Assembly (NCBI GenBank): GCA_004284765.1
Contig: NQJD01000010.1
Coordinates: 1-32,000, forward strand
Direction of reading: 5' to 3'
Length of the DNA: 32,000 nt
From: Candidatus Electronema aureum
GTDB taxonomy: Bacteria > Desulfobacterota > Desulfobulbia > Desulfobulbales > Desulfobulbaceae
In this document: one piece after another, positions 672-28,026 of the stretch
How the letters are laid out: the number at the start of each line of letters is the position of its first letter
How positions within the stretch are numbered: position 1 is the first letter of the stretch
Translations under genes and position numbers: made by a program
Notes under the pieces: model-generated
Seen by the model: the letters and a program-made list of their open reading frames with translations, nothing else
The model's database searches: none
What the model was told of the DNA's origin: nothing

Positions 672-3600
672 ATGATTGATTTTTCCAAAATTCACGGATT
701 TCAGGCAGGACAACGCCATTCTTTTGAAGAGTTGGTCTGCCAACTGGCACGCAGGGAAGAATATCCCGCTGATGCGGAATTCAGACGAGTGGAAGGGGCC
801 GGTGGTGATGGAGGCGTTGAGGCGTATTGGAAGAAAGCAGATGACAGAGAGATAGGGTATCAGGCAAAGTATTTTCTGCGAACAGGCGATATTGATTGGG
901 GGCAAATAGACGAGTCCGTAGCTCAAGCGATTCAAACTCATGAGAAACTTGAGAAGTATGTAGTTGCCTTGCCTTGTGATCTTACGGATAGATCAGGAAA
1001 GAAAGAGCAGGGCAAACCCGGCTGGGAGCATTGGAAAACCCATGTTGCGAAATGGAAGAAACAAGCTGCCGAACAGGGCAATTCAAGCATTCAATTTAAT
1101 GTCTGGTCTCAGAGTGAGCTGCTCACCAGATTAACCAAGCCGACGGCTGAAGGTCTGCGACAGTATTGGTTTGGTGAAGTCGAGTTCTCACAACGATGGT
1201 TTAGGGAACATGTTCGGGAGGGCATTGTCTCTCTTGACGAGAGGTTTCACCCGGAAGATCATGTCGATGTTCATATCCAGAAGCTCTTTTCAGTCCTTGT
1301 CCGTCATCCATCATACGTTGATGAGCTGAAAAGTAAGCTCTCTGCTATTTTTGAGAATACACTATCGATCAACCAGTTTTCAGGCTTGCCCCAGCAGCCT
1401 GATCCAGCACTTCTTGCCAACTTATCCAAGGCACAGAAGCAATTGCTCGCTGTGCAGGAAGAGTTTGCTCTGCCTCTGTATAAAGATTGGAATATTGACC
1501 AATGGATACGTTTTGCCGATGAACTCATCTCGTTATTGGAAGCCTTGTCTGTTTGGTGTTGGGAGTATGCAAGAAAATTAGAACGGGAAAGTCCTGCGAA
1601 TAACGAAATATATCGACAAAGTAGTGTATTATCTTCACTCAAGGAGTCTGCGGAAGAGTTCCGTTCGCTCTGTGCAAGTGAATTCATGCAGGCAGAACAA
1701 GGCCGGATTGCATTCATTGAAGGACGGGCTGGAACTGGGAAAAGCCATCTGTTCGGCAAAGAGGCATCCAGAGTTGCAGATGAAGGCGGAGCCGTCATTC
1801 TTGCGCTTGGACAACGCATGAACAATGAAGAGCCTTGGTCGCAGTTTGCAAAACTTTTTCATCTGCCGAATAAAAATGCTGATGTTTTACTTGGTACCCT
1901 TGATGCCGCTGGCGAGGCAAGTGGTAAAAGAGCATTGTTGTTGATTGATGCCATCAATGAGGGGCCAGGCAGCAGATACTGGCAGAACCATATCTTGAGT
2001 TTTGTCGAGACGGTGCAGAAACACAAAAACATTGCTTGCATTATCTCTTGCCGATCAGAATATTTTCCCGTTGCCATACCAGATTCCCTTGCCCAGAAAA
2101 CCCCGACTTTTTCCATCAGAGGCTTTGAGACGCATGACGAACAGGTGAATGCAGCCAAGGTTTTTCTTGATCGCCGAGGAATAGCTCGTCCAAGCACACC
2201 TTGGTTGGCCCCTGAATTCGTCAATCCGCTGTTTTTGCGTTCGGTCTGCGTGTCCTTGGCGCGGGATGGAAAATCAGAATTCCCAACAGGTCTGCATGGA
2301 ACACGTCATATTCTCAGCTATTATTTAGACAGCGTTGGAAAGAACATCAAGGCTGCGGAAGGAAGTTTGGCTTCCTTGCCTGCTGCTGTAAAAAATTCTG
2401 TCGTGCAACTTGCCAACACGATGGTTTCTCATCGCAATGATTATCTCACAATGAGTGAGGCGGAACAAGTCATCGGCAAATGTTTTCCACCAGCAGCACC
2501 GCATTCCGAAGCCAGCTGGCTTCTTGTTCTGTTGAGCAATGGTCTCATTCGTCGTGATCCAAATCCACAGGCAAGCAACGATCCTTTGGCAGAAGCTGAA
2601 GACGTGATTCGTTTCAGCTTTCAGCGATTCCAGGATTTCCTGATGGGCGATACGCTTGTTGCTGACCATAAAGACGCAGGCACGCTGTTCAGTGATTCAG
2701 GTCCGCTGCAATTCATACTCGATGAAGGAAGGATTTCTTGGCAATGGCGGGGTCTTTCCGAGGCATTGTCTTCAATTATCCCGGAGAAATTTGGCTGTGA
2801 GCTTATTGATATTTTGCCTGATAAACAATTAGTGCATAATCCTTGGGATATATTAGCGTATCATCCTTTAGAGATTAATGATTTATTTATTGAAAGTATT
2901 AAGTGGCGAGAGCGAAAAGCATTTAGTGAGCGTTCCTTAGAACTGTTTAACAAACTGGTGCAATATCCCCTTGAGGTGCTGCTTGAAATTTCGGTATCTT
3001 CTGATCATCCGTGGAATGCGGAACTGCTGCACCGTAATCTCGCAAAGCTCAAGCTCCCTGAGCGAGATGCCTTCTGGACGGTATGGCTGAACGAGCGATC
3101 GGCGGAAAATGACTCTTCTGTTGGACGATTGATTGACTGGTGTTTGTCTGGGCAGGTGCCGCATACAAACAGGGAGAATCAATTTTTGGCTGGATTGACG
3201 CTGTGTTGGTTTTTCACAGCATCGAATCGGATTATTCGCGATAAGGCAACCAAAGCTCTATCCTCACTTTTCATTGTGAGAGCGGATATTTTTCCCGACC
3301 TCTTGGAACGATTCAGAGATGTTGATGATCTGTATGTTCTTGAAAGGATCTTGGCCGCAGCCTATGGCGCAAGCTGTCGAGATCAAGAGCGGGGACGATT
3401 AGAAAGCTACAGCCGCGTAGTTTACAAGTATATTTTCGCTGATAACAAACCTCCTTTGGGACTTCTTCTGCGGGATTACGCCTTTGGGATTATTGAACTG
3501 GCACGATACCATGATGTGCTTGCGTCTGAAGTAGATTTTGATTGTTGCAACCCGCCGTACCAATCGAAAAGAGTCTGCTTTAATATCACTGAAGAACAAC

Positions 3601-5051
3601 TTAAAGCTGTTGCTAAAAAGGCAGGTGGTGACGAGATTCTTCGCTCGGCTACAGGTTATATGGGTGATTTCGCACGATACGAAATCGAACCAAGGGTGGA
3701 AAACTTTCTCTCAGTGCCATTGAGCAAAGATGTGCCGTTGAATTCAGAGGATATCAAAACAGTAGAGGATATTTTTTTACTTTTACTTTCCGATGCAAAG
3801 AAAAAACAATTTGAGAATGAAGTTATACCAGCCCGTTATGATCGAACCGAAAAAACAAAAAAGATTGATATTGCGGCGGCAATGCGTTGGGTCGCCAACC
3901 GTGTCTATCGAATGGGATGGACTGCAAAACGATTTGCTGATGATCGGTCTCGACACAAGGGAGGACACGCTTACTCTCGTGACAGGCCAATTGTCGAGCG
4001 GATAGGAAAGAAGTATCAGTGGTTGGCCTTAGATGAGCTGCTGTGCCGCTTGGCTGACAATCACTGGTTTACAGGTGAATATGGCGGTATGCCAAGACAT
4101 TATTCCCGCTCGACGGATGTTGATTTTCACCGAGACATAGACCCGACTATCATTGAGGAGGAAGAACTACGGGAACAGCGTAACGGAACGTCCCAAGAGT
4201 GGGTAGATCAACCCATAATTACGCTGCCGGAAGTTGCTGAAGATGAATTGGCAGCTTGGCCTTTTCAGGATGATCCCGCCTGCCAACTGAAAAATATGAT
4301 AGAACGTCAGGATAATACAGGGACAGATTGGATGGTTCTCTATGAGCATCAAGTTGCAACTAAAAAATATCCTAAAGAACAACGAGGAGAGCATGGTCTT
4401 CGTCAACAAGAATTCCGGTTTCTTATGTCTGTTGTTGTGCGGAAAGATGAGATTAAAGATATAATCAATTCACTGAAAACAAAAGAGAAATTTGAGCTTG
4501 GCAGTTTGAGATGGGAGCCTCGTAACATGACTGACGAGGCTTTCCTCTATGAAGCCCCTTGGAGAACGACTTGGCCAGATTCCAAATGGAAATTTAACAA
4601 TTGGGATGTGCCAGAAGGAGTGGGGATAGCTTATCCTGTATGGGGCTATAACTGGGAATCACACATGGATGCCTCGCTGCCGAACGGATTCAATACCTAT
4701 CTCCCGGCTCCTTGGCTGGCAAAGGAACTAAAACTTACCCCGAAATTCAATCAAACAGGTTGCTGGGCAGCTCCAAATGGTGAAACAGTATTCAGGGAAA
4801 TTGCTGGAGAAAAAGGCGGCAGCCTCTGTTTGCTGCGTAAAGATTTTGCCGATCAACTGCTTGGTGATGATCTCTGCATTCTTTGGCTGTTGATTGCTGA
4901 AAGAAATGCTTGGCCCGGCGGAAGCAATAACAATCCCGCTTGGCGACGTTCGGAAGGACTATGCTGGCACGATGGGAAGAAACTAAGAACAGCTACTTGG
5001 AAAAGGGATAACGGCAACGGCACTTCTGCCAAATATACTGGCAAGGAGTAA
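672..5051 (+). CDS. Large P-loop NTPase (STAND/Avs-like) with N-terminal Mrr/PD-(D/E)xK-like nuclease motif and ~1000-aa C-terminal region of unknown fold
   Basis: 1459-aa ORF. Walker A is GRAGTGKSH (about nt 1725..1751) and Walker B-like is ALLLIDAINEG (about nt 1932..1964). The N-terminus has GGDGGVEAYW..IGYQAKYF, resembling the DGG-(D/E)..Q-x-K core of Mrr-type restriction nuclease domains. GC is lower than the neighbours, IS debris lies on the left flank, and there are no partner genes. Confidence 0.75.
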   Translation: MIDFSKIHGFQAGQRHSFEELVCQLARREEYPADAEFRRVEGAGGDGGVEAYWKKADDREIGYQAKYFLRTGDIDWGQIDESVAQAIQTHEKLEKYVVALPCDLTDRSGKKEQGKPGWEHWKTHVAKWKKQAAEQGNSSIQFNVWSQSELLTRLTKPTAEGLRQYWFGEVEFSQRWFREHVREGIVSLDERFHPEDHVDVHIQKLFSVLVRHPSYVDELKSKLSAIFENTLSINQFSGLPQQPDPALLANLSKAQKQLLAVQEEFALPLYKDWNIDQWIRFADELISLLEALSVWCWEYARKLERESPANNEIYRQSSVLSSLKESAEEFRSLCASEFMQAEQGRIAFIEGRAGTGKSHLFGKEASRVADEGGAVILALGQRMNNEEPWSQFAKLFHLPNKNADVLLGTLDAAGEASGKRALLLIDAINEGPGSRYWQNHILSFVETVQKHKNIACIISCRSEYFPVAIPDSLAQKTPTFSIRGFETHDEQVNAAKVFLDRRGIARPSTPWLAPEFVNPLFLRSVCVSLARDGKSEFPTGLHGTRHILSYYLDSVGKNIKAAEGSLASLPAAVKNSVVQLANTMVSHRNDYLTMSEAEQVIGKCFPPAAPHSEASWLLVLLSNGLIRRDPNPQASNDPLAEAEDVIRFSFQRFQDFLMGDTLVADHKDAGTLFSDSGPLQFILDEGRISWQWRGLSEALSSIIPEKFGCELIDILPDKQLVHNPWDILAYHPLEINDLFIESIKWRERKAFSERSLELFNKLVQYPLEVLLEISVSSDHPWNAELLHRNLAKLKLPERDAFWTVWLNERSAENDSSVGRLIDWCLSGQVPHTNRENQFLAGLTLCWFFTASNRIIRDKATKALSSLFIVRADIFPDLLERFRDVDDLYVLERILAAAYGASCRDQERGRLESYSRVVYKYIFADNKPPLGLLLRDYAFGIIELARYHDVLASEVDFDCCNPPYQSKRVCFNITEEQLKAVAKKAGGDEILRSATGYMGDFARYEIEPRVENFLSVPLSKDVPLNSEDIKTVEDIFLLLLSDAKKKQFENEVIPARYDRTEKTKKIDIAAAMRWVANRVYRMGWTAKRFADDRSRHKGGHAYSRDRPIVERIGKKYQWLALDELLCRLADNHWFTGEYGGMPRHYSRSTDVDFHRDIDPTIIEEEELREQRNGTSQEWVDQPIITLPEVAEDELAAWPFQDDPACQLKNMIERQDNTGTDWMVLYEHQVATKKYPKEQRGEHGLRQQEFRFLMSVVVRKDEIKDIINSLKTKEKFELGSLRWEPRNMTDEAFLYEAPWRTTWPDSKWKFNNWDVPEGVGIAYPVWGYNWESHMDASLPNGFNTYLPAPWLAKELKLTPKFNQTGCWAAPNGETVFREIAGEKGGSLCLLRKDFADQLLGDDLCILWLLIAERNAWPGGSNNNPAWRRSEGLCWHDGKKLRTATWKRDNGNGTSAKYTGKE

Positions 5052-5093: not shown

Positions 5094-7645
5094 TTACTTC
5101 GCACACCATTCATACGCATTCTGAAACATCCGCAGCCACGGCGAGACCTCCATCTCTTGCATCTCCCTCGGCAGCCAATGGCATTGCCACGGCAGGAAGG
5201 CCCGCTCCGGGTGCGGCATCAGGGCTAAGTGGCGGCCATCAGGCGAGCACAGACCGGCGAATCCGTCCGGCGAGCCGTTGGGGTTGAAGGGATAGGCTTC
5301 CGTGGCCGCGCCGCTGTCGTCGGCATAGACCAGCGGCACCAGCTTCTGGCTGATCACCTCGGCCCGCACCGCCGCGTCCGGGAAGTGCAGCAGGCCCTCG
5401 CCATGCGCCACGTGAATGCCGAAGACGAGGCCGCTCATACCGCGCAGCATCATGGCCGGGCTGTCGGTCACGCGCACGGTCGTCCAGCGCGACTCGAAGC
5501 GGCCCGATGTGTTATGCACGAAACGCGGCTGCTTCTCCGCCGCTAAGCCGCGCCACGGCACCCAGCCGAGCAGTCCAAAGAGCTGGCAGCCGTTGCAGAT
5601 GCCGAGGGTGAACGTGTCGGGCCGATTCAGAAACTCGTCGAACATTGCCCGCAGCCGCTCGTTGAAGAGGATGGTTGCGGCCCAGCCCTTGGCCGAGTCC
5701 GGCACGTCGGCGTAGGAGAAGCCCCCGACTGCCGCGATGCCCCGGAAGCCGTCCAGCGTCACCCGCCCGGCCAGCAGGTCGGTCATGGTGATGTCCCACG
5801 GCTCGAAGCCCGCAGCGTAGAAGGCGGAACTCATCTCGCGGTCGGAGTTGGAGCCTTCATCGCGGAGGATGGCGACCTTGGGCTTGCGCTCAGCGGTGAG
5901 CAGAGCCTTGGGTGAGGACTGCGGCGAGAAGGGCAGATGATAGGCCGGAGCGGCGCGATCGAAGACGTTCGTTTTTTCCTGATCAGCACAGGCGGGATTC
6001 ACTTGCAGCCGCTCAAGCTGGTAGCTGGTCTCTTCCCACTCCTGCCGCAGGACGCGCATGTCCTCATTCAGCACAAGCGTATCATTGCAGCGGATGCGGA
6101 TGCGCTTCTCCGCCGTCGTTGTGCCCAGCACTTCGCAGCTCACCTCGGCCACAGCGAGACGGTGCCTGATCTGCTCAAGCTGCTCCTGCCGACATTCGAT
6201 CACCAAGCCCAGCTCCTCAGCGAAGAGGGTGGGAACAGCCTCGCCCTGAACTTCGATCTCCACGCCGCAGTTGCCCGCAAAGGCCATCTCCAGAACGGTG
6301 GTGATCAGGCCGCCGTCGCTGCGGTCGTGACCAGCGAGAATCAAGTCTCGGTCGATCAGCTCCTGCACCGCAGCGAATGCCTGCCGAAGCAGCACTGAAT
6401 CGTCCATGTCCGGGCTTTCGTCGCCAAGGCTGCCGAGGGTCTGCGCCAAAGCTGAACCACCCAGCCGCGCCTTGCCCGGTGCCAGATCAATCAGCAGCAA
6501 TGCCGAACCTGGCTCCTTGATGTCCGGCGTGACTGCCTTGCGTATGTCGCTCATCGCGGCATACGCGGAGATGACTAACTCACGAGGGGACTTCACCGTC
6601 TCCGCGCCGACCTTGGTCGCCATCGAGAGCGAGTCCTTGCCGCCGTCAACCGCCATGCCGGTGGCGATCATCGCATCGCGCATGGCCCGCGCCGCGTCGT
6701 TCATCGCCGCGCCTTCGCCCGCCAGCTTGGGTGCCCACATCCAGTTGGCCGAGCACTTGACCTGCTCCGGGTCGTCAATCTTCGCCCAGACCAAGTTCGT
6801 CCACGCCTCGCCAACCGCCATGCGTGCGCCTGCTGCTGGGTTGATCAGCATCTTAATCGGTTGCTCGCCAATGGCTGTGGCAATGCCGGTCAGACCAAAG
6901 TGCGACTGCGCCACCACCGCCACATCACCGACGGTGAGCTGGAGCGGGCCGCAGCACTGCTGCCGGGCGATCAAGCCGGTGACGGAGCGGTCAACCTTGT
7001 TGGTCAGGAAGCGTTTCGAGCCGACCGAGACGAGGCGGAGGACGTTGCGGAGGTGATCGCGAAGGGATGTAGGGGCGAACCTTGTGTTCGCCCCTTGTTG
7101 CCCGGAGCCGGGTAGGGCGAATACAAGATTCGCCCCTACAGGTATGCGCTGATCCTCAAACGTCTTCTGCGGAATATGCCCCAGCACCTCCTTCAGCTCC
7201 ACGTCAACGGGCGTGCTGCCGTCCTGCTCGTCCGAGACCACAAAGCGCAGGTCGCCGGTGACTTCGCCCAGCACCTCGCAGGCCACTTTCTCCCGCTCGC
7301 AGATGGCGAGGAACTGCTGGATATTCTCCGGCTTGATCAGCAGGCCATTGCGTTCTTGATACTCGGCCACGTAGATTTCCAGCACCGACATGGTGGGGTC
7401 GCCGACCCGTATCTTGCGGATTTCGATGCGCCCGCCGGAGTGCTCGACCAGCTCCTTGAGCACGTTGGCCGGGCCGCCTGCGCCCTGGTCGTGGATGACC
7501 TCGATCAGCGTCCTGCCGCCCATCTCATTGCAGGCGCGGATGACCCGGTTCATCTTCTGCTCCATCTCCGCGTCGCCGCGCTGCACCGCGTTGAAGTCCA
7601 GCTCCGCTGCGTTCTCGCCTTGGAGCATGGACGAGGCCGCGCACG
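5094..7645 (-). pseudogene. purL: 5'-truncated copy of phosphoribosylformylglycinamidine synthase (large single-chain PurL), C-terminal two thirds, ORF still intact
   Basis: The 844-aa ORF aligns colinearly with residues ~439..1282 of the full copy at 13908..17756 (MLQGENAAELDFNAVQRGDAEMEQK.. onward; the first ~100 residues are identical). Homology (AASSMLQ) runs upstream of the ATG up to the stop codon of the preceding gene. It therefore starts inside the synthetase domain and lacks the N-terminal third. Confidence 0.9.
7069..7139. repeat. REP doublet (REPIN/BIME-like): two inverted GTAG-type palindromic units inside the truncated purL ORF
   Basis: Unit 1 is GTAGGGGCGAACCTTGTGTTCGCCCCT (stem 7071..7080 / 7086..7095). 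The reverse complement of 7112..7139 is GTAGGGGCGAATCTTGTATTCGCCCTAC, near-identical to unit 1 but inverted. The ORF stays open through it (..PVGANLVFALPGSGQQGANTRFAPTS..). Confidence 0.7.
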
Positions 7646-7649
7646 CCTG

Positions 7650-8726
7650 TCAATTCATCTTCAGCACCAGCACCTCCACCAGCCTGCTGGAATACCCGCT
7701 CCTGATCATCTTCACCAGATCAGCGAAGTTATTCACTGTGATATTCAGACTGCTGAGAGCAGAGCCGCTGAAGCCCGGCAGCACGTATGCGCCATTGGCG
7801 AGAACCTGCACCGCCGCGCCCGCCCTGCCGCCTTCCGTCATATCGAGCAAATTGAGCGACAAGCTGCCGGTGTGCAGATCAAGGATGGCCTGAATGCGCA
7901 CGGTCTCATCCGCGCTCAAGCTGCCGCCGGTGACGGTGACATACGGCGACGCGGCCTTGTCCGTCAGGATGCCGACATCCGGCGGATTGGGGTGGCCGAA
8001 ATTGGTCAGCGTCAATGGGGTGCGCAGCTTGCGGCGGTAGATGCCAGTGCGCAAAGTGCCGTTCGCGGTGTAATGGGTGGCGATGGAGAGGGTGTACTCG
8101 TTGTTCCACGGGTCGTTCTGCGCCGGGATGTCAGGCAGCAGCGTGACTTCCGTGTTGGCGATGCCGACAAAGCGCGTCTGCACGGTTCGCCCACTCCGTG
8201 TGCCCTCGATCACGCAGGCTTCGTCCGGCTTCTTTGGGTCAAAGAGCAGATTGCTGCCGGTGAGCTGCAAGGCCCCGCCGCTGTGCAAGATATCTTTCAG
8301 GCCCAGCACTGTGTCTTCCGCCGCCGTGATCAGCGGGGCCTTTTCGGTCATGGGCAGACGTTCAATCTGCACCGCCCGCTGCACGGTCTCGGTGCAGGCT
8401 TTGGACGCATGGACGCGCACATTGAGCATGTCCTCAACCGGCGGCAGCGGGTCGTCCGGCGACTCCAGCCGTGCGCTGAAGGAGAGGCCGAAGGTGAAGG
8501 CATCCGGCAGTACGGTCTGGTTGCCGTTGATCAGGTTTGCGCCAATCCGCTCCATCGCCGCCATGATGATGGTTTTGGCATCCTCTTGGGCGTAATTGGG
8601 GTGCATCTGCACCACCTCGGCGGCCAGCTCATCATAGCCGAGCGTGTCTTTAGGCACAAAACGGACGGAATACGACGGGGGCGTGGTCAGGGCATTGCCC
8701 TCGATCCGCACTTGCACAGTTGCCAT
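7650..8726 (-). CDS. HU-like DNA-binding domain protein with DUF4469-type Ig-like domain(s), copy A
   Basis: 358-aa ORF with RBS AAGGAGAAG upstream. The N-terminus MATVQVRIEGNALTTPPSYSVRFVPKDTLGYDELAAEVV..LINGNQTV..F.GLSFSARLESPDDPL follows the pattern of Bacteroidetes-type HU-HIG proteins (N-LT-P-Y-ARV, then L-G-V, then G-F). The middle part (LQLTGSNLLFDPKKPDEACVIEG..NEYTLSI) follows the DUF4469 pattern. It is a paralogue of 17818..18891. The family assignment is from memory of motif patterns, not a search. Confidence 0.7.
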   Translation of the reverse strand: MATVQVRIEGNALTTPPSYSVRFVPKDTLGYDELAAEVVQMHPNYAQEDAKTIIMAAMERIGANLINGNQTVLPDAFTFGLSFSARLESPDDPLPPVEDMLNVRVHASKACTETVQRAVQIERLPMTEKAPLITAAEDTVLGLKDILHSGGALQLTGSNLLFDPKKPDEACVIEGTRSGRTVQTRFVGIANTEVTLLPDIPAQNDPWNNEYTLSIATHYTANGTLRTGIYRRKLRTPLTLTNFGHPNPPDVGILTDKAASPYVTVTGGSLSADETVRIQAILDLHTGSLSLNLLDMTEGGRAGAAVQVLANGAYVLPGFSGSALSSLNITVNNFADLVKMIRSGYSSRLVEVLVLKMN

Positions 8727-8771
8727 AATTCTTCTCCTTGAGGAAAAAATTGAGCTGCATGTATGAAAGCC

Positions 8772-8800
8772 AGCGTAAGACGGGCTGCGGCTTCTGTCAA
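8772..8800 (-). promoter_or_regulatory. Putative sigma70-type promoter of HU-like gene A
   Basis: On the minus strand, TTGACA (8800..8795), a 17-nt spacer, then TACGCT (8777..8772). The layout is equivalent to the promoter of copy B. Confidence 0.4.
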
Positions 8801-8836
8801 CAGAAAAGATAAGGAAAGCGGTCTGCTGGATGATGA

Positions 8837-8997
8837 CACCAGTGAGGAGGAAGTCTTCTCACTAGTGTGAAGGACGGCTGCACACCAGTGTCGAGACGCG
8901 GACATCACTGGTGTGTAGCGTGGCTCCTCACTGGTGAGGAGAGGGAGAGATAAGCAGTGAGGAGAGTGGCTGGACACTGGTGAGGAGAAGCGGCGGC
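8837..8997. repeat. Array A: 7 tandem units with exact 23-bp phasing and a near-palindromic CACYRGTG core
   Basis: Unit starts are 8837, 8860, 8883, 8906, 8929, 8952 and 8975. Units: CACCAGTGAGGAGGAAGTCTTCT / CACTAGTGTGAAGGACGGCTGCA / CACCAGTGTCGAGACGCGGACAT / CACTGGTGTGTAGCGTGGCTCCT / CACTGGTGAGGAGAGGGAGAGAT / AAGCAGTGAGGAGAGTGGCTGGA / CACTGGTGAGGAGAAGCGGCGGC. Confidence 0.85.
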
Positions 8998-9027: not shown

Positions 9028-9816
9028 TCAGGATTTTTCAGCGATGATCACGGCGGAGCGGATGTAGTTCTCAATGCCGCTGTCAGCCATCCAGTCCTTG
9101 ATGAAGGCCCGGCTGTCCTCCTTGATCTCCACCGAGACTGCGCTGAAGCCTGCCTGCTTCAGCATGGCCTCTATCTCGGCAACGGGCGCGGCCCCAGCAG
9201 CGCAGCAGGTGTAGGCTTCAGTGATTGCCCCCAGCTCCGGCGGCAGCGGGGCAACAGCCACCACATCGGAGATGGCCAATCTGCCGCCCGGACGCAGCAC
9301 CCGGCAGGTCTCGGCAAAGACCTGCGCCTTGTCCGGCGAGAGGTTGATGACGCAGTTGGAGATGATCACGTCCACGCTGCTGTCGGCCACCGGCAGATGC
9401 TCGATCTCGCCCAGCCTGAACTCGACATTGGCATAGCCGCCTTTCCGCGCGTTGTCACGGGCCTTGGCCAGCATCTCCGGGGTCATGTCCACGCCGATGA
9501 CCCGGCCTGCCGCGCCCACCTGCCGGGCGGCAAGGAAGCAGTCAAAGCCGCCGCCGCTGCCCAGATCGAGCACGGTCTCACCGGCTTGCAGCTCCGCTAT
9601 CGCCTGCGGATTGCCGCAGCCTAAGCCCATGTTGGCCCCATCCGGCACAGCGGCCATCTCCTCCGCCGCATAGCCGACGCTGGCCGAGGCTAACGGGTTG
9701 CCTAACGGCTGCGGAGCGCATTGAGAGGCACCGCAGCAGGAGCCGCCTGCAACCGCAATCCCACCGTATCTGGCCCGCACCTCAGCGCGGAGGGCATCCT
9801 TCACTTGATCAGACAT
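9028..9816 (-). CDS. arsM: Arsenite S-adenosylmethionine methyltransferase
   Basis: SAM-binding motif VLDLGSGGGFDCF, plus VDVIISNCVINL, RPGGRLAISD and N-terminal cysteines (GGSCCG). Start chosen at MSDQVKD (ATG 9816) because AAGGAG lies 5-10 nt upstream; the ORF-track start at 9873 would overlap the upstream gene. Confidence 0.85.
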   Translation of the reverse strand: MSDQVKDALRAEVRARYGGIAVAGGSCCGASQCAPQPLGNPLASASVGYAAEEMAAVPDGANMGLGCGNPQAIAELQAGETVLDLGSGGGFDCFLAARQVGAAGRVIGVDMTPEMLAKARDNARKGGYANVEFRLGEIEHLPVADSSVDVIISNCVINLSPDKAQVFAETCRVLRPGGRLAISDVVAVAPLPPELGAITEAYTCCAAGAAPVAEIEAMLKQAGFSAVSVEIKEDSRAFIKDWMADSGIENYIRSAVIIAEKS

Positions 9817-9829
9817 AACGCAGCTCCTT

Positions 9830-10513
9830 TTAGAAGAAATAGACAGCACAGTAATAGCCGCCGATGAGAACAAACAGCAGGCCGGTTATTCGCCGCGCCC
9901 AGATTTCAAAGGCAGCAATCCGGTTGAAGGCTTGGGCGACCTTGTTGGTGCCAAAGGCCAGCAGCAGGGCGAAGAGCAGCACCGGCAAGCCCGTCGCCAG
10001 CCCGTACACGCCGGGCAGCAGTATTCCTGACTGCTGCTGCACAGCCAGCGGCAGGAGCGAGCCGAAGAACAGGGCTGCTGAGGTCGGGCAGAAGGAGAGG
10101 GCGAAGACCATGCCCAGCAGCCCGGCCCCGCCGATGCCCAGAGAGTCCGCCTTGTTCTGCAAGGCCGCGCTCAGGCCGCTGGAGCCGACAGGCAAGGGAA
10201 TCAGCTCCAGCAGAATCAAGCCAACCACGATCAGCATCGGGCCAAGGGCCATGTTCATGTGCTTCTGGAGCACCTGCGACAGCGAGGGCGCGGAGAGCAG
10301 GCTGCCGACCAAGAGCATTCCTAAGAGCAGATAGGCCAGGGTGCGTCCGGCGGTGTAGAGCAGGCCCGCTTGCAAGACGCTGGCCGGTTTACCCACGCGG
10401 CGGCCCACATAAGATATCGCCGCGATGTTGGTGGTCAGCGGGCAGGGGCTGATGGAGGTGAGGATGCCGAGCCAGAAGGCCGAGGCCAAAGGCACGAGGA
10501 TGGACTCGCTCAT
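9830..10513 (-). CDS. CcdA/DsbD_2-like thiol-disulfide transfer membrane protein
   Basis: 227-aa polytopic membrane protein with LTSISPCPL in the first helix, typical of DsbD/CcdA transmembrane-domain proteins. Its ATG overlaps the upstream stop (ATGA at 10511..10515). Confidence 0.65.
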   Translation of the reverse strand: MSESILVPLASAFWLGILTSISPCPLTTNIAAISYVGRRVGKPASVLQAGLLYTAGRTLAYLLLGMLLVGSLLSAPSLSQVLQKHMNMALGPMLIVVGLILLELIPLPVGSSGLSAALQNKADSLGIGGAGLLGMVFALSFCPTSAALFFGSLLPLAVQQQSGILLPGVYGLATGLPVLLFALLLAFGTNKVAQAFNRIAAFEIWARRITGLLFVLIGGYYCAVYFF

Positions 10514-10995
10514 CAGCCTTTCCCGTTGAGCAGCAGGTTGATTTCATCGCGGAGGTATTGCGCAAAGGCCGCTTCATCATGGACAAGCTGCCAGACCTTA
10601 TCCAGCCGCCGCCACTTGGCCTCCTTGCCCTGCTTGATCTGGGAGACCACCACCGAGCGAGTGGCTAACTGATACTCTTCAACAAAGTGCTCGTTCTCGC
10701 TCTTGTCCACGTTGACCACCTGCACTTCCATCGAGCCGTCCTTGAGCTGTCCGGCAAACGACTCCTCCACGGTTTTCTTCGTCAGTGCCTCAATCTTCTT
10801 GCAGGTTGTGCAGCGCTGGTTGCCGTGGAAGTAATAGACCCGCGTCGTGCTCTGCTCAGTCTTCTGGGCCGCTGCGGGTGGCTGACTGCTGCCAGCAGCA
10901 CTCGTTTCCGCTGCTGACTCTGCGAAGCTGCCGCCCGCAGCAATGAATAAGGCCAGCAGGACGGCTGCAATGCTTTTGCTCTTTATCGTGCTCAT
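10513..10995 (-). CDS. Secreted thioredoxin-fold protein (ArsF-like family, tentative)
   Basis: 160 aa with N-terminal signal peptide MSTIKSKSIAAVLLALFIAAGGSFA and a C-x-x-C motif in YYFHGNQRCTTCKKIE. Located in the ars operon. Confidence 0.6.
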   Translation of the reverse strand: MSTIKSKSIAAVLLALFIAAGGSFAESAAETSAAGSSQPPAAAQKTEQSTTRVYYFHGNQRCTTCKKIEALTKKTVEESFAGQLKDGSMEVQVVNVDKSENEHFVEEYQLATRSVVVSQIKQGKEAKWRRLDKVWQLVHDEAAFAQYLRDEINLLLNGKG

Positions 10996-11008
10996 CGTGC
11001 CGCGCTCC

Positions 11009-11242
11009 TTATGCAGACAGCATCTTCTTGAGTTCCTCGACAGAAGGCACCATGCCGAGAAGTTTCACCTCACCATCCACAACCAAGGCAGGTGTCGTCA
11101 TCACACCAAACGATATGATCTGACTGATGTCCGTGATCTTCTCCAGCTCGAAATCAAGCTGAAGGGCTTTGGCGGCAGCTTCGGCGTGTTCCGTCAGCTT
11201 CTTGCACTTGGGGCAGCCAGTGCCCAGTATTTGGATTTTCAT
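11009..11242 (-). CDS. Small thioredoxin-family protein (redox-active disulfide protein 2 type)
   Basis: 77 aa, MKIQILGTGCPKCKKL...TPALVVDGEVK: a canonical CPxC glutaredoxin-like small protein often linked to arsenic permease genes. Confidence 0.8.
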   Translation of the reverse strand: MKIQILGTGCPKCKKLTEHAEAAAKALQLDFELEKITDISQIISFGVMTTPALVVDGEVKLLGMVPSVEELKKMLSA

Positions 11243-11285
11243 TGCATTACCCTTGTTATTTGTTTATCCGAACAGAGTACAGAAA

Positions 11286-11735
11286 TCACTGCGCCTTTCC
11301 AAGAGCGTTGATGAAATCCCTGGCAGTGTCGCCGCGAAGATTCTCTGCGAGTCCGACCAGTCCGTCGGTCAGGTATCTCGCCTCAAGACCTTTTGAGCGG
11401 AGGTACACCATAGCGATGATTGCGCGGTCTTTGTGCGGACATGCGGTAACAATCATCTTGCCCTTGTCAAGCTCTGCAAGCCTTTTCGGCAGCTCGTTCA
11501 AAGGGATGTTGATTGACGGCATGACCTTCCACGCTGCATATTCCTCTGCAAACCTGATGTCAATCAATTGCGCTTTCCCTTCCTTCAAGAGTTTGACAAG
11601 CTCTTTGCTGTCAACATTCATTTCCTCCTTTGCGGCATAATCAAAGGCGGCAATGTATTTCTCCAGCGGGGCATCGCTTGCGTATGCAGGCAGGCACATT
11701 GCCGCCAGCAGGAAGATGAGTGTCAGCTTTTTCAT
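11286..11735 (-). CDS. Secreted rhodanese-domain protein
   Basis: Start chosen at MKKLTLIFLLAAMCLPAYA (ATG 11735, RBS AAGGAGAA upstream). Carries LIDIRFAEEY and the active-site loop region VTACPHKDRA, as in rhodanese/ArsC-like sulfurtransferase domains. Confidence 0.7.
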   Translation of the reverse strand: MKKLTLIFLLAAMCLPAYASDAPLEKYIAAFDYAAKEEMNVDSKELVKLLKEGKAQLIDIRFAEEYAAWKVMPSINIPLNELPKRLAELDKGKMIVTACPHKDRAIIAMVYLRSKGLEARYLTDGLVGLAENLRGDTARDFINALGKAQ

Positions 11736-11811
11736 ACGGTTCTCCTTGTTGATGAACGCCCCCGCAGGACGGGGGATCGTTGATTGCGTCGAACAGCCCG
11801 CCTTGGTTGCG

Positions 11812-12339
11812 CTACATCTCCTCGAAATTGAACTGAGCGAGATATTCAGCCAGCATCTTCCGCTGGTCATCGCCCAAGGCAGGGCAGGCATCCGGCCCCA
11901 TTGCGCCTTGCACAGCCAGCGAAGCGAAAACGATGCAGGTTGCTTGGCCGCACTGCCCGCAGTTCGTTTTCGGCAGCAGCTTCAACACCGCCAGCGGCTG
12001 CGGCCTGCTGACCGCGCTGTATTTCGGCGTGATGCTGGCCCGCTGCTCCCACGCCTCGTTGATCTCCCGCTTCAGCCACTCAACGATCTTCACCGCTTCT
12101 TCAGCGTCCTTCAGGGCGTTGATGGATATCTTCCGCGAATGCACAGAAATCATGCGGCCATGCACTTTGAACATCACCGAAGGCGGCGATTGGACGAAGC
12201 ACGTCCCGCCCAGCACCGCGTTCAGATACGGAATGACCTCGCTGATGTCTTCCTCAAGATGCGCGTGGCAGTGCAATGACTGAAAACTGGCGTTGCACGT
12301 CGGCCTGACCATCTCTATCGTGTAGTTTTTCAGCAGCAT
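11812..12339 (-). CDS. Fe-S cluster-binding protein (C-terminal RnfB/CODH-type 4Fe-4S domain)
   Basis: 175 aa. The C-terminal LPKTNCGQCGQATCIVFA...CP motif is characteristic of the putative Fe-S cluster domain. Confidence 0.6.
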   Translation of the reverse strand: MLLKNYTIEMVRPTCNASFQSLHCHAHLEEDISEVIPYLNAVLGGTCFVQSPPSVMFKVHGRMISVHSRKISINALKDAEEAVKIVEWLKREINEAWEQRASITPKYSAVSRPQPLAVLKLLPKTNCGQCGQATCIVFASLAVQGAMGPDACPALGDDQRKMLAEYLAQFNFEEM

Positions 12340-12352
12340 TGTTTACCTGCCC

Positions 12353-13405
12353 TCAATTCCCCACGAACATCCGCTTCCGCAGCATGAACGCCGCATTGAC
12401 CAAGGCAATCATCACCGGCACTTCGATCAGCGGGCCGATGACTGCGGCAAAGGCCGCGCCTGAATTGATGCCGAACACGGCCACGGCCACCGCAATCGCC
12501 AGCTCAAAGTTGTTGCTGGCAGCAGTGAAGGCCAGCGTGACGGTCTGGCTGTAATTCGCCCCGGCCATGCGCCCCATGAAGAAGGAGACAAAGAACATGA
12601 TCAGGAAGTAGATCAGCAGCGGCACAGCAATCCGCACCACGTCCAAAGGCAGCGAGACAATAACATCACCCTTGAGCGAGAACATGACCACAATGGTGAA
12701 GAGCAGGGCAATCAGGGTGATCGGGCTGATACGCGGCACAAAGACGCTGTGATACCAGTCTTTGCCTTTGGCTTTGACCAAGAAGAAGCGGGTCAGGAAG
12801 CCTGCAAGAAAAGGGATGCCCAGATAGATGAACACGCTTTTGGCGATCTCGCCGATGGTGATGTCAACGATGCTGCCTGTCAGCCCGAACCATGCTGGCA
12901 GAACGGTGATGAAGAGATAGGCGTACAGGCTGTAGAACAGAACTTGGAAGATACTGTTGAAGGCCACCAGACCGGCGGCGTACTCAGTATCGCCTTTTGC
13001 AAGATCATTCCAGACGATGACCATCGCGATGCAGCGGGCCAGACCGATAAGAATCAGACCGGTCATGTATTCGGGATAGCCACGCAGGAAGATGATAGCC
13101 AGCAGGAACATCAGCACCGGGCCGATCAGCCAGTTCTGAATCAGGGACAAGCCAAGAATTTTCCAGTTGCGGAACACATCGCCCAGCTCTTCGTAGCGCA
13201 CCTTGGCCAAGGGCGGGTACATCATGAGGATTAGGCCGAGGGCTATGGGGATATTGGTTGTGCCGACTGAGACCGCACTGTTTACGCTGCTGACAGCGCG
13301 GGGGAAGAGAAAGCCTATGCCAACCCCGATGCCCATTGCCAGAAATATCCACAAGGTCAGGTAGTGGTCAAGAAAGGACAGCTCTTTCGGTGATTCCTGC
13401 GTCAT
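12353..13405 (-). CDS. acr3: ACR3-family arsenite efflux transporter
   Basis: 350-aa polytopic membrane protein. [20 protein letters not shown] at the N-terminus and overall colinearity with Acr3/ArsB(ACR3) proteins; located directly downstream of arsR. Confidence 0.85.
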
Positions 13406-13423
13406 CGCGTTTTCTCCTGAGAA

Positions 13424-13750
13424 TTAAAGGTGCCGCATCAGCGCGGCTTGGTCTTTGCCCTGCGCTTTGATCACCGCCTCCACGCAGTTCATGAAGTTCA
13501 GCACGCATGGAACCTTCAGCCGGTAGAAGACCTGCTTGCCGCGTTTGTCAACCTCAACGATCCCGGCCTGTTTCAGCACGGCAAGGTGCTTAGAGATGGT
13601 GGAGAAGTCGAAGTCCATCGCCCCGACAAACTCGCAGACGCATTTCTCGCCGCCTGCAAGCTGTTCGGCCATCCACAGGCGGGTGGGGTGGGCAAGGGCT
13701 TTGAGCACAGCGGCCTTGGCTTCGCACAGTGTCTTTTCCTGTTCGTTCAT
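13424..13750 (-). CDS. arsR: ArsR/SmtB-family metalloregulator
   Basis: 108 aa. LKALAHPTRLWMAEQL and the metal-site ELCVCDL-type variant (EKCVCEF), followed by a winged-HTH region. Confidence 0.85.
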   Translation of the reverse strand: MNEQEKTLCEAKAAVLKALAHPTRLWMAEQLAGGEKCVCEFVGAMDFDFSTISKHLAVLKQAGIVEVDKRGKQVFYRLKVPCVLNFMNCVEAVIKAQGKDQAALMRHL

Positions 13751-13907: not shown

Positions 13908-16900
13908 TTAAACAGACCTCCCGCACCACTCTCTCGCATTCTGGAACATCCTCAGCCACGGCGAGACCTCCAGCCCCTGCATCTCCCTTGGCAGCCAATG
14001 GCACTGCCACGGCAGGAAGGCCCGCTCCGGGTGCGGCATCAGGGCTAAGTGGCGGCCATCAGGCGAGCACAGCCCGGCGAAGCCGTCCGGCGAGCTGTTG
14101 GGGTTGAAGGGATAGATTTCCGTGGCCGCGCCGCTGTCGTCGGCATAGACCAGCGGCACCAGCCGCTGCCCGATCACCTCGGCCCGCACCGCCGCGTCCG
14201 GGAAGTGCAGCAGGCCTTCGCCGTGCGCCACATGAATGCCGAAGACCAGGCCGCTCATGCCGCGCAGCATCATGGTCGGGCTGTCGGTCACGCGCACGGT
14301 CGTCCAGCGCGACTCGAATCTGCCCGATCTGTTGTGGATGAAGCGCGGCTGCGCCTCTGCGTCTAATCCGCGCCAAGGCACCCAGCCGAGCAGACCAAAG
14401 AGCTGGCAGCCGTTGCAGATGCCGAGGGTGAAGGTGTCGGGCCGATTAAGAAACTCATCGAACATGGCCCGCAGCCGCTCGTTGAAGAGGATGGTCGCGG
14501 CCCAGCCTTTGGCCGACTCCGGCACGTCGGCGTAGGAGAAGCCACCCACAGCCGCGATGCCCCGGAAGCCGTCCAGTGTCACCCGCCCGGCCAGCAGGTC
14601 GGTCATGGTGATATCCCACGGCTCGAAGCCAGCGGCATAAAAGGCGGAACTCATCTCGCGGTCGGAGTTGGAACCCTCATCGCGAAGTATGGCGACCTTG
14701 GGCTTGCTTGCCGCAGTCAGCAGAGCCTTGAGCGTAGGCTGCGGGGTGAACGGCAGATGATAGGCCGGAGCGATGCGGTCATAGATGCTCTGCCGTTCCG
14801 CTTCCGCACAGGCAGGGTTCACTTGCAGCCGTTCGAGTTGATAGCTGGTCTCCTCCCATTCTTGACGGAGGACGCGCATGTCCTCATCCAGCACCAGCTC
14901 GCCGTTGCAGCGGATGCGGATGTACTTGTCTGCCAGCGAAGTTCCCAACAGCATACAAGGCACCTCAGCGACGGCCAATATCTGCCTGATCTCCTCAAGC
15001 TGCTCCTGCCTGCATTCCAGCACCAAGCCCAGCTCCTCAGCAAAGAGAGTGGGAATTGCTTCGCCCTCAATCGCAAGCTCCAGCCCGCAGTTGCCCGCAA
15101 AGGCCATCTCCAGCAGAGTGACGATCAGGCCGCCGTCGCTGCAGTCGTGGCCGGATAAGATCAGGTCTTGCGCGATCAGCTCCTGCACCGCTGCGAATGC
15201 CTGCCGGAGCAGCACTGGGTCGTCCATGTCCGGGCTTTCGTCGCCAAGGCTGCCCAGTGTTTGCGCCAGAGCTGAACCGCCCAGCCGAGTCTTGCCCGGA
15301 GCTAAGTCTATGAGCAGCAGAACCGACCCCGGCTCTTTAATATCCGCTGTGACGACCTTGCGGATGTCGCTCATGGCCGCGTATGCGGATATAACCAGCT
15401 CGCGGGGCGACTTCACCGTCTCGCTGCCCACCTTGGTGGCCATTGAGAGCGAGTCCTTGCCGCCATCCACGGCCATTCCAGTGGCGATCATCGCGTCACG
15501 CATGGCCCGCGCCGCGTCGTTGAGGGCCGCGCCTTCGCCGGGCAGTTTGGGCGCCCACATCCAGTTGGCCGAGCACTTCACCTGCTCCGGGTCGTCAATC
15601 TTGGCCCAGACAAGGTTCGTCCATGCCTCGCCGACGGCCATGCGCGCCCCTGCCGCTGGGTTGAGCAGCATCTTGATCGGCTGCTCGCCGATAGCTGTGG
15701 CAATGCCTGTCAGACCAAAGTGCGACTGCGCCACCACGGCCACATCGCCCACCGTGAGCTGAAGCGGGCCGCAGCACTGCTGCTGCGCAATCAGGCCGGT
15801 GACGGAGCGGTCAACCTTGTTGGTGAGGAAGCGTTTGGAGCCGACCGAGACGAGGCGGAGGACGTTGCGGAGGTGATCACGGACGGATGGGCAATGCCGT
15901 AGGGGCAATTCATGAATTGCCCCTACGGGTACACGCCTGTCCTCAAAGGTCTTCTGTGGGATATGCCCCAGCACCTCCTTCAGCTCCACGTCCACGGGCG
16001 TGCTGCCGTCCTGCTCGTCCGAGACGACAAAGCGCAGATCGCCGGTGACTTCGCCCAGCACCTCGCAGGCCACCTTCTCGCGCTCACAGATAGAGAGGAA
16101 CTGCCCGATATTCTCCGGCTTGATCAGCAGGCCGTTGCGCTCCTGATACTCGGCCACGTAGATTTCCAGCACCGACATGGTGGGGTCGCCGACGCGAATC
16201 TTGCGGATCTCGATGCGCCCGCCGGAGTGCTCGACCAGCTCCTTGAGCACGTTGGCCGGGCCGCCCGCGCCTTGGTCGTGGATGACCTCGATCAGCGTCC
16301 TGCCGCCCATCTCGTTGCAAGCGCGGATGACCCGGTTCATCTTCTGCTCCATCTCCGCGTCGCCGCGCTGCACCGCGTTGAAGTCCAGCTCCGCCGCGTT
16401 CTCGCCTTGGAGCATAGAGGAAGCCGCGCCGCCGCCGAAGCCCACCCGGTACGCAGGCCCGCCGACCTGCACGATCAGCATCCCCTTGGCCGCCTGCTCC
16501 TTCTTAATATGGCGGTCGTCAATCTGGCCGATGCCGCCGGTGAACATGATCGGCTTGAGCCAGGCCCAGCGTTCGCCGCCCTCCACGCGCAGGTCAAAGG
16601 AGCGGGTGAAGCCCTGAATCAGCGGCTCGCCGAACTTGTTGCCGTAGTCGGACGCGCCGTTGCTGGCTTCGATCTCGATGGTCAGGGCCGAGGCGAGGTT
16701 GGAGGGGCAAGGATGGTGCTGCTCCCAAGGCAGCTCGTAGCCGGGAATGTGCAGATTGCCCACGCAGTAGCCTGCCGTGCCTGCCATGACAAAGCCGCCC
16801 TTGCCTGTGCCTTGCACGTCACGGATGCGCCCGCCAGTGCCGGTCTCTGCGCCGGGGAAGGGTGCCACGCCAGTGGGGAAGTTGTGCGTCTCGGCAGTCA

Positions 16901-17817: not shown

Positions 17818-18891
17818 CTACGCCGTCTCAACCTTCAGGACATCCACCACCCGCCCGCCGTAGTTGTTGCGGATCATCTCTTTCAGTCCTGCGTACTCAT
17901 TCACCCGGATGCTCAGGCTGGAGACCGCCGAGCCGCTGAATCCTTGCAACGTCACTGCCCCGTTCGCGGTCACGCTCACTGCTGCGCCCACCGCTCCGCC
18001 CTCTTTCATATCTAACAGGCTGAAGAGCAGCGCGTCGGTGCGCGCATCAAAGACCGCCTGAATGCGCAGGGTCGTATCTGCCGCCACGCTGCCGCTGGTG
18101 ACGCTGACATGCGCGCTGGCCTCCTTGCCCGTGAGAATGCCAACCTCTGGCGGATTCGGGTGGCCCATCTTGGTCAAGGTCAGCGGCGAGCGCAGCATCC
18201 GTCCATACGTTCCAGTGCGCAGCGTCCCGTGTTCGCTGTAGCGCGTGCTGACGGAGACCGTGTATTCGTTGTTCCACGGATGCGGCGGCGCAGGCAGGTC
18301 CGGCATGACGATGATCTCGCTGTCCTCAATCTTGCCGAAGCGGGTCTGCGTGATCTTGCCGCCTGCCGTGCCTTCGATCACGCAGCCGCTCCCCTGCTTG
18401 CGGTCGAAATGCAAATCAGCACCAGTAAGCTGGAGCAGGCCCGCCGGATTGAGCACATCCTTCAGTTCCAGCACCGTGTCCTGTACTGTGCTGATGAGCG
18501 GTAGCTTCTTCTCCTCCGGCAGGCGTTCAGTTTTGGCATCTCGGCGGATGGCTTCAATAAAGGGCTGGGAGGCATGGATGCGGACTTGCAGGCATTCGTC
18601 TAACGGCGGCAACGGGTCGTCCGGGCTGTTGAGTTTGCCGGTGAAGGAAAGGGAGTAGGTCACGGCGTTCTCCTCAGTCACCTGCTCGCCATTGAGCAGG
18701 CTTTCGGCGATGAGCTGGTTGTGGAGGTCAATGAAGGTGCGGAACTCCTCCTCGCTGTAGTTGGGCAAAGCCTTGGCCATCCGGGCGGCCATGTCCGCCT
18801 TACCAAGCACGTTGCGGGCTATGAAGCGGGGCCGCCAGGACGGCGGGGTGGTGAGGGCGTTGACTTCCGGTCTCCATTGAATCGTTGCCAT
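17818..18891 (-). CDS. HU-like DNA-binding domain protein with DUF4469-type Ig-like domain(s), copy B
   Basis: 357-aa ORF with RBS AAGGAGAAA upstream. It is colinear with copy A over the full length (MATIQWRPEVNALTTPPSW.., LNSPDDPLPP, LQLTGADLHFD, PWNNEYTVSV, GHPNPPEVGILT), with roughly half the residues identical by manual alignment. It lies directly upstream of purL on the same strand. Confidence 0.7.
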   Translation of the reverse strand: MATIQWRPEVNALTTPPSWRPRFIARNVLGKADMAARMAKALPNYSEEEFRTFIDLHNQLIAESLLNGEQVTEENAVTYSLSFTGKLNSPDDPLPPLDECLQVRIHASQPFIEAIRRDAKTERLPEEKKLPLISTVQDTVLELKDVLNPAGLLQLTGADLHFDRKQGSGCVIEGTAGGKITQTRFGKIEDSEIIVMPDLPAPPHPWNNEYTVSVSTRYSEHGTLRTGTYGRMLRSPLTLTKMGHPNPPEVGILTGKEASAHVSVTSGSVAADTTLRIQAVFDARTDALLFSLLDMKEGGAVGAAVSVTANGAVTLQGFSGSAVSSLSIRVNEYAGLKEMIRNNYGGRVVDVLKVETA

Positions 18892-18941: not shown

Positions 18942-18970
18942 ATCCTAAGAAGCTGCCGCTGTTTTGTCAA
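18942..18970 (-). promoter_or_regulatory. Putative sigma70-type promoter of HU-like gene B (possibly also driving purL)
   Basis: On the minus strand, TTGACA (18970..18965), a 17-nt spacer, then TAGGAT (18947..18942). Array B begins 14 bp upstream of the -35. Confidence 0.45.
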
Positions 18971-18983
18971 GACAAAGAACAGC

Positions 18984-19121
18984 GTGGAGGCATAGGAAAA
19001 AACAGTATGCCTCGATATCGTAGAACGCTATGCCTGCATACCGTCCAGCGTCATGCCTGCATGAAGGAAAACAGTATGCCTCGATACCGTTTTGCGCTAT
19101 GGAGGCATGGCGCGGAAGAGC
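18984..19121. repeat. Array B: 6 tandem units with exact 23-bp phasing and an ATGC-NN-GCAT-type core
   Basis: Unit starts are 18984, 19007, 19030, 19053, 19076 and 19099. Units: GTGGAGGCATAGGAAAAAACAGT / ATGCCTCGATATCGTAGAACGCT / ATGCCTGCATACCGTCCAGCGTC / ATGCCTGCATGAAGGAAAACAGT / ATGCCTCGATACCGTTTTGCGCT / ATGGAGGCATGGCGCGGAAGAGC. Units 1 and 6 carry the core in flipped orientation. Units 1/4 and 2/5 also share their tails, giving a 69-bp super-period. Confidence 0.85.
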
Positions 19122-27879: not shown

Positions 27880-27978
27880 CGTTAACACGGATAGCTATTT
27901 CCTCATGAATTTACTCCAAAGGAAATGATGAAATACCGCAATGCGGTAAAAAAGTAGCTTACCTGTTCATAAGCAGAT

Positions 27979-28012: not shown

Positions 28013-28026
28013 AGAGGATGATAACC

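Follow-up and report, generated by a model that had tools for sequence, protein, structure and literature searches.

Arrays of phased repeats to which the product of a neighboring gene binds are an already known kind of element. Among the partition systems, parC of plasmid R1 consists of ten 11-bp iterons arranged around the parMR promoter, and the centromere of pSK41 of eight 20-bp repeats. The lambda operators OR1-3 and OL1-3 are 17-bp palindromes with centres 23-24 bp apart, and their immunity specificities diverge among lambdoid phages. Iterons are a further case, with seven repeats of 22 bp in R6K and 17-mers at a pitch of 22-23 bp in RK2. On the protein side, the nearest structural relative of the gene products discussed here is 4FMR (BVU_2165), an HU-plus-Ig protein of the HU-HIG clade of Bacteroidetes (PMC5499826). 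Its Ig domain fills part of the usual DNA cleft, and for Ig-fused HU-HIG proteins DNA binding by the clasp was argued to be improbable and a role as sequence-specific transcription factors unlikely (Burroughs et al. 2017, PMC5499826). No cis-elements were reported in the HU-HIG paper (PMC5499826).

The window, i.e. the whole stretch of 32,000 nucleotides from Candidatus Electronema aureum that was analyzed, contains two paralogous genes, A and B, for proteins with an HU-like N-terminal domain and Ig-like domains (HU-Ig proteins), each with an array of 23-bp units upstream. The features to which we refer are the following:

7650..8726, minus strand: gene A, 358 aa, with an HU/IHF-like N-terminal fold, an Ig-like DUF4469 domain and a conserved beta-rich C-terminal part
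8732..8739, minus strand: ribosome-binding site of gene A, AAGGAGAA, kept in the alignment of orthologues
8772..8777, minus strand: -10-like hexamer of gene A, TACGCT, 17 nt past the -35 hexamer (family consensus TAnGCT(G))
8795..8800, minus strand: -35 hexamer of gene A, TTGACA, 74 nt upstream of the ATG
8837..8997, no strand: array A, seven units at a pitch of 23 bp, upstream of gene A
8924..8941, no strand: best-kept unit of array A, with perfectly complementary arms CTCCTCAC and GTGAGGAG and a central TG
9028-9873, minus strand: arsM-like methyltransferase gene, with its stop codon facing array A
17818..18891, minus strand: gene B, 357 aa, a paralogue of gene A with 54% identity
18942..18947, minus strand: -10-like hexamer of gene B, TAGGAT, after a 17-nt spacer from the -35 hexamer
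18965..18970, minus strand: -35 hexamer of gene B, TTGACA, with the array upstream
18984..19121, no strand: array B, six units at a pitch of 23 bp, upstream of gene B

Like the ParR/parC, TubR/tubC and omega heptad arrays, the arrays of the HU-Ig loci are phased repeats located at the promoter of the binder's own gene, the binder being in our case a predicted one. The likeness to the ParR/parC type extends to repeats that are private to each system, to half-sites about 11 bp apart and to the assembly of cooperative dimers into a filament or superhelix, which for HU-Ig proteins is our proposal. However, the binders of the ParR/parC type are ribbon-helix-helix or winged-helix proteins and not proteins with an HU/IHF fold and Ig-like domains, they are adjoined by a motor NTPase (ParM, ParA or TubZ) which the HU-Ig loci lack, and partition systems belong to plasmid and phage replicons whereas HU-Ig modules are chromosomal, consist of a single gene and are present as several paralogues per genome. 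The lambda operators resemble the HU-Ig units as dyads of ~17-18 bp at a pitch of ~23 bp, a geometry that would permit contacts between dimers, and in both cases protein and operator specificity diverge jointly among relatives. They differ in that lambda has three units across divergent promoters, and HU-Ig arrays five to eight upstream of a single promoter; the helix-turn-helix protein and the phage setting of lambda have no counterpart here either. The iterons of theta plasmids are similar in copy number (5-8), pitch (22-23 bp), the adjoining gene for the presumed binder and private specificity, but they are direct asymmetric repeats while the HU-Ig units are palindromes, and the HU-Ig arrays come without the Rep protein, DnaA boxes and AT-rich unwinding element of iteron origins. 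With the HU-HIG proteins the HU-Ig proteins share the HU fold with an Ig-like DUF4469 domain, lineage-specific expansion, fast divergence of the HU domain and the lack of a conserved operon partner; the cable-bacterial proteins are, however, ~100 aa longer and are found in Desulfobulbaceae rather than Bacteroidetes, and their loci mostly have an array whereas four HU-HIG loci of Bacteroides that were examined have no phased one. New in this comparison are the HU-Ig fold, the chromosomal layout of single-gene modules in multiple paralogues and how widely specificity diverges while the pitch is fixed. Our literature search found no published description of the arrays and no mention of DUF4469 or CDV28 loci, and no histone-like or HU-Ig protein of such type was found in the cable-bacteria literature searched.

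Array A is flanked by the stop codon of the arsM-like methyltransferase gene on one side and by the promoter of gene A on the other. The first-pass annotation had described it as seven units exactly 23 bp apart, and when the unit starts were re-read in the sequence (8837, 8860, 8883, 8906, 8929, 8952 and 8975) the spacing was found to be exact throughout. The head CAC(C/T)(A/G)GTG, or CACYRGTG, that it had given as the core is present in six units (CACCAGTG, CACTAGTG, CACCAGTG, CACTGGTG, CACTGGTG and CACTGGTG), the tails are variable as it stated, and the sixth unit, at 8952, is indeed degenerate (AAGCAGTG). The conserved block is longer than this head: the full unit is an inverted repeat of 8+2+8 nucleotides, CTCCTCAC-YR-GTGAGGAG, and a spacer of ~5 bp, and most units retain one good half-site. 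Within the 23-bp period this amounts to a core of 8-18 bp and a tail of 5-15 bp. Tandem Repeats Finder reports positions 8836-8891 only (period 23, 2.4 copies), since the tails of the units vary, and a repeat search of the window gave array A families at spacings of 23, 46 and 92 bp together with many inverted repeats. A pattern search for CACYRGTG in the 32-kb window returned six matches, all six within array A and at multiples of 23 bp, against 1.7 per 32 kb expected from shuffles, which is in accordance with the earlier statement that the array is not chance low-complexity DNA. Dispersed palindromes of the REP/BIME type were also considered, and in the scan, which covered the window, the core did not occur outside the array.

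The arrays of three orthologues were aligned with array A, from L015 (92% protein identity), L001 (90%) and L012 (73%). CAC..GT is invariant in every unit of array A and of the orthologous arrays, the central YR flips among CA, TG and TA, the spacers drift, and whole units were gained or lost. On these alignments, retention of the core together with drifting tails is the pattern of selection on a putative protein-binding site with a flexible, uncontacted centre, and not that of recent tandem duplication.

Array B, to which array A had been likened, proved to be a comparable element, with units starting at 18984, 19007, 19030, 19053, 19076 and 19099 at the exact pitch of 23 bp, a palindromic core and a position upstream of a TTGACA promoter. 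Its core is ATGCCT-SS-AT or the reverse complement AT-SS-AGGCAT, the outer two units being inverted relative to the inner four, and an orthologous array with the same core is present in L037. The period, the logic of the palindromic core, the position relative to the promoter and the unrelatedness of the core sequences agree with what had been claimed for the pair; array A has seven units and array B six. The cores of the E. aureum paralogues A, B and CDV28_1606 are mutually unrelated, and the modules would therefore be mutually orthogonal. In several arrays (A and B, and also those of L002 and L012) autocorrelation at 46 bp is higher than at 23 bp, and the spacers of array B are of two alternating types, AGCG....ACGGT and ACTGTTTT.C.T.; the 46-bp signal suggests duplication in double units or else the footprint of a dimer of dimers. 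In the CDV28_1606 subfamily (L095 4830-4870, L017 and L003) the long array is replaced by one long inverted repeat, GGATTCCCATC...GATGGGAATCC, immediately upstream of the -35 hexamer, which may be a truncated array. Beyond this inverted repeat lies AT-rich, foreign-looking DNA, with integrase and transposase genes close by.

Homologous loci were sampled from species-representative genomes (14 loci) and metagenomes (80 loci), and in the 78 with sufficient upstream DNA the repeat period was taken as the best autocorrelation lag upstream of the gene. This period was 23 bp in 61 of the 78. A score of at least 0.5 was reached by 59 of the 78 loci, 57 of these at lag 23, while none of the 78 shuffled controls reached 0.45 and coding-sequence controls gave autocorrelation peaks at multiples of 3. 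The form of the array is directly observed to be shared by most of these loci, whereas the core sequences diverge widely, as the following examples illustrate:

Core of L040: TACGTAT.ACGACAAA.TCGT
Core of L065: GGAG.ATAACGTTAT.CTCC
Core of L084: GCATGGAG.....CTC.ATGC
Core of L011: GGATCGTACGATC
Core of L036: AAGG..CCTT

In 57 of 62 arrays the units have dyad symmetry (z >= 2 in comparison with column-permuted controls) and therefore two half-sites per period, ~11.5 bp apart, as would be expected for the binding sites of dimers. Across the family the arrays have 5-8 units. A clear array is absent from ~20% of the cable-bacterial loci, some of which keep one long palindrome, and a second, much more distant HU-Ig clade in Electrothrix also has 23-bp arrays (L102 and L103). 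This survey supports the earlier suggestion that the two arrays represent one kind of element in versions of different specificity, as homologous loci share the period, the dyads, the position and the promoter and differ in the core. In the four Bacteroides HU-HIG (4FMR-like) loci upstream periodicity was not above that of shuffled controls, and the idea that phased arrays are a general trait of HU-HIG loci was rejected on this ground. No recurrent neighboring gene was found among 76 loci. A shared trans-factor is unlikely since the cores differ between loci, and as the neighboring genes are not conserved, the adjacent HU-Ig gene is the sole locus-specific candidate for the binder.

Of 74 non-redundant homologous loci, 71 have an exact TTGACA, mostly 85-89 nt ahead of the ATG, and the family consensus of the promoter is TTGACA-N17-TAnGCTG with an A/T-rich stretch before it. 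A generic sigma-70 scan did not call the promoter of gene A because its -10 is weak, and the promoter was assigned on the basis of conservation across the homologous loci. The arrays and the promoters are in register: the distance from the dyad axes of the array to the centre of the -35 hexamer averages 5.4 bp (mod 11.5), which places the hexamer in the slot of a half-site (Rayleigh p ~2e-8, n=52, with loci that are not independent). At gene B the TTGACA fills the position where the next core of array B would begin. At gene A the proximal core ends 37 bp short of the -35 hexamer, and direct occlusion is therefore not obvious there.

Gene A is located on a 2.9-Mb chromosome amid housekeeping genes, its product is 100% identical to CDV28_1103 of Ca. 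Electronema aureum, and E. aureum has at least four HU-Ig paralogues. The identification of both genes as HU-like/DUF4469, made in the first pass, is marginal by Pfam, with a DUF4469 score equal to the cut-off in protein A (22.6 bits) and no detection in protein B, and with HU-DNA_bdg at 18.7 and 22.3 bits, below the cut-off of 30; it is upheld by predicted structure. The AlphaFold (AF2) model of the gene A protein has a mean pLDDT of 86. A Foldseek search with this model gave a match to 4FMR (E = 1e-12) over ~246 aligned columns including the Ig domain, and its N-terminal part was covered by HU/IHF chains with target TM-scores of 0.66-0.82. The model confirms an N-terminal HU/IHF-like fold as predicted for this protein. 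By sequence, the family profile gave weak matches to HU (E = 0.007) and to 4FMR (E = 0.011). Gene A shows the HU fold, the Ig-like DUF4469 domain and the partnerless expansion of the HU-HIG clade and departs from it in distribution, which is not that of Bacteroidetes: all named homologues come from cable bacteria (Ca. Electronema and Ca. Electrothrix) or other Desulfobulbaceae genomes. The family comprises 841 clusters at 50% identity (E <= 0.001). Mean identity between the proteins compared is 0.45 in the N-terminal domain and 0.56 in the C-terminal part. The arm region is acidic and nearly invariant (RLDSPDDPLPP) and therefore cannot determine specificity. Distant relatives of 640-840 aa are extended at the C-terminus, for instance by a repeat region with many SPDG..W motifs. 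On one metagenomic contig (L105 1-4664) three genes follow one another in tandem on the same strand, encoding an 837-aa fusion relative, a 346-aa HU-HIG protein and a 344-aa DUF4469 protein, and the middle gene has no array upstream.

The similarity of the arrays follows the N-terminal ~140 residues of the adjacent protein and not residues 141-358, a co-variation that is directly observed, although the array adjoins the N-terminal codons and recombination in the conserved C-terminal part would give the same pattern. When C-terminal identity was matched at 0.5-0.8, mean N-domain identity was 0.67 in pairs with the same core (n=23) and 0.46 in pairs with different cores (n=1053), and it exceeded C-terminal identity in 14 of the 23 same-core pairs versus 45 of the 1053 others. 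The fraction of pairs with a common array is ~0 below 60% N-domain identity, 0.71 at 80-90% and 1.0 above 90%. These contrasts were used in place of the global rank correlation between array similarity and protein identity, which is weak (rho ~0.09) because most pairs are unrelated. Gene B (winB) and L036 are 81% identical in the N-domain and have unrelated arrays, and their differences cluster at residues 10-31. More generally, switches of the array at matched N-domain identity go with changes at residues 11-20, 71-90 and 121-130, i.e. in the N-terminal beta-hairpin, the HU beta-strands and the linker, in a comparison whose sample is small and whose pairs are not independent. Residues ~11-31 and 71-90 are thereby suggested as candidate specificity determinants.

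On balance we favor, with modest confidence and from sequence comparison, the explanation that array A is a private operator array of gene A to which the HU-Ig protein is predicted to bind. The protein would dimerize via its HU-like N-terminal domain, each dimer would read one dyad unit of ~18 bp, which at array A is CTCCTCAC-YR-GTGAGGAG, and adjacent dimers would touch through the conserved C-terminal Ig-like part. Such contacts could fix the pitch of 23 bp family-wide, independently of the sequence of the core. A filament of 5-8 dimers would then extend in register to the -35 hexamer of its own promoter (TTGACA-N17-TAnGCT) and set the activity of this promoter. We infer that the adjacent protein binds, that its C-terminal part provides the cooperativity and which sign the regulation has. 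With ParR/parC, the omega repressor and TubR/tubC as analogues, the most likely sign would be cooperative negative feedback by the HU-Ig protein; activation is possible, given the perfect -35 and the weak -10. Several points speak against the private operator: the published view of Ig-fused HU-HIG proteins (PMC5499826), the acidic arm region, which seems ill suited to touching DNA, the adjacency of the array and the N-terminal codons, the exceptions (winB and L036, and the ~20% of loci that lack a clear array), the gap of 37 bp at array A and the weak -10.

A broader proposal, which we offer tentatively and regard as doubtful, is that cable bacteria hold lineage-specific, self-contained and mutually orthogonal modules of a protein plus its private DNA address, in which HU-Ig proteins polymerize at a pitch of 23 bp. 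If this were true, the address modules would be a family on the HU fold with dozens of distinct sequence specificities and a natural library of matched pairs of protein and operator, the arrays would be cooperative switches or chromosomal landmarks rather than simple operators, and the view that Ig-fused HU-HIG proteins do not read DNA sequence would be overturned. The arrays challenge the published prediction against sequence-specific binding by Ig-fused HU-HIG proteins (PMC5499826). An unannotated family would gain a concrete cis-element as a partner and a hypothesis on binding, dozens of protein/operator pairs at one geometry would be suited to the study of how DNA specificity evolves on the HU fold, and such pairs could furnish orthogonal regulator parts. 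Cable bacteria have no pure culture and are genetically intractable. The conserved promoter with its private operator is among the few regulatory elements that can be read straight from cable-bacterium genomes.

The private operator has to be weighed against other readings, of which the first, although we consider it unlikely, shares its central prediction. According to it the protein does bind its own array, and the main role of the array is non-transcriptional: a nucleation or centromere-like site that marks or tethers the locus, where the Ig-like C-terminal part would bind a common cellular partner and autoregulation would be a by-product, as in ParR/parC. Five to eight phased sites exceed what simple feedback needs, half-sites every ~11.5 bp recall parC of plasmid R1, and the C-terminal two thirds are conserved across paralogues while the DNA-facing domain diversifies; the extra C-terminal domains of distant relatives (SPDG..W repeats) would also suit a partner other than DNA. 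This partner is, however, hypothetical, no motor NTPase or other conserved partner gene lies nearby, at this locus or at the loci compared, and the strict tie to a conserved promoter together with the register of the -35 hexamer favors promoter control.

It is improbable that a factor other than the adjacent protein binds the arrays, or that DNA structure (curved, bent or cruciform) modulates the promoter without this protein. The palindromes could extrude cruciforms or hairpins, folding being better than that of shuffles on both strands (z = -4.6 and -4.9), and the literature doubts DNA binding by the clasp of the nearest structural relative (PMC5499826). However, dozens of unrelated cores in one architecture would require dozens of factors, the bases kept are specific ones (CAC..GT in all orthologous units) and not mere pairing potential, and the array type follows the N-terminal domain of the adjacent protein.

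Very improbable, in our estimate, is a role in DNA rearrangement, with the arrays as iterons of an integrated replicon, as multi-site ends of a mobile element or as substrates for the shuffling of N-terminal cassettes. They share their pitch of ~22-23 bp with plasmid iterons and Tn7-end sites, a truncated purL copy adjoins the stop codon of gene A, the array and the N-domain behave like one unit in recombination against the C-terminal part, and integrase and transposase genes lie near one paralogue. The module itself, on the other hand, carries no Rep, transposase, integrase or second inverted end, DnaA boxes and an AT-rich region are missing near the array, and no relatives were found among IMG/VR viral contigs. 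The context of arsM, array, gene A and purL' is kept in related species, so that identical flanks are partly seen, and dozens of chromosomal modules per lineage cannot all be origins. That the array is transcribed and acts as a series of RNA hairpins is hardly credible. The region does fold more stably than shuffles, but it does so equally well on either strand, which a palindrome in DNA would show anyway; its position is upstream of the conserved promoter, Rfam gave no match in the window, and the half-sites conserve sequence and not pairing.

Several known classes of element were considered and rejected separately. A replication origin was discarded as there is no Rep-like domain, TTWTNCACA occurs in the window only at 3210 and 27860, and GC content is 0.49-0.60 across the region. 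A partition system was discarded for want of an NTPase at the locus and of a conserved neighbor across loci, and a phage or defence element since IMG/VR gave no relatives, PADLOC no match, and PHROG and NCBIfam matches at chance level only. A CRISPR array is excluded on geometry, the whole period being 23 bp, and a known RNA family by the lack of an Rfam match in the window and by strand-symmetric folding.

With regard to the surroundings, the neighbors of the two modules in the window are purL', the arsM-like methyltransferase gene, purL and the gene for an FG-GAP protein. The truncated purL copy (5094-7647, corresponding to 13916-16433, residues ~442-1282) begins 2 bp past the stop of gene A and has 87% nucleotide and 90% amino-acid identity with the full purL (13908-17756). 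The junction of gene A with purL' is also present in Ca. Electronema nielsenii (L001), and in L040, L048 and L078 an HU-Ig module lies immediately downstream of the 3' end of purL. Because of these repeated junctions, the neighborhood of purL seems to be a recurrent site for HU-Ig modules. Between modules A and B, on the minus strand (9028-13750), is a cluster that resembles arsenic resistance, with genes for ArsR, an Acr3/SBF-type transporter, an Fe-S protein, a rhodanese, a glutaredoxin-like protein, DsbD_2 and the ArsM-like methyltransferase.

Elsewhere in the window, an ORF of 1459 aa on the plus strand (672-5051) has no Pfam match and matches the NCBIfam model Avs2 (AVAST type 2 anti-phage protein) with E = 5e-222 and 740 bits, under the curated cut-off of 1000. 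Self-BLAST revealed a perfect palindrome of 32 bp within the coding region of purL (15897-15928). The FG-GAP repeat protein gene (19255-20438, plus strand), divergent from gene B, contains a tandem repeat at 19743-20365 with 3.7 copies of a 168-bp coding repeat. Finally, three unannotated ORFs of 190, 193 and 199 aa lie in tandem on the plus strand (27307-29295), and two of these share ~70% DNA identity (27390-27873 and 28770-29253).
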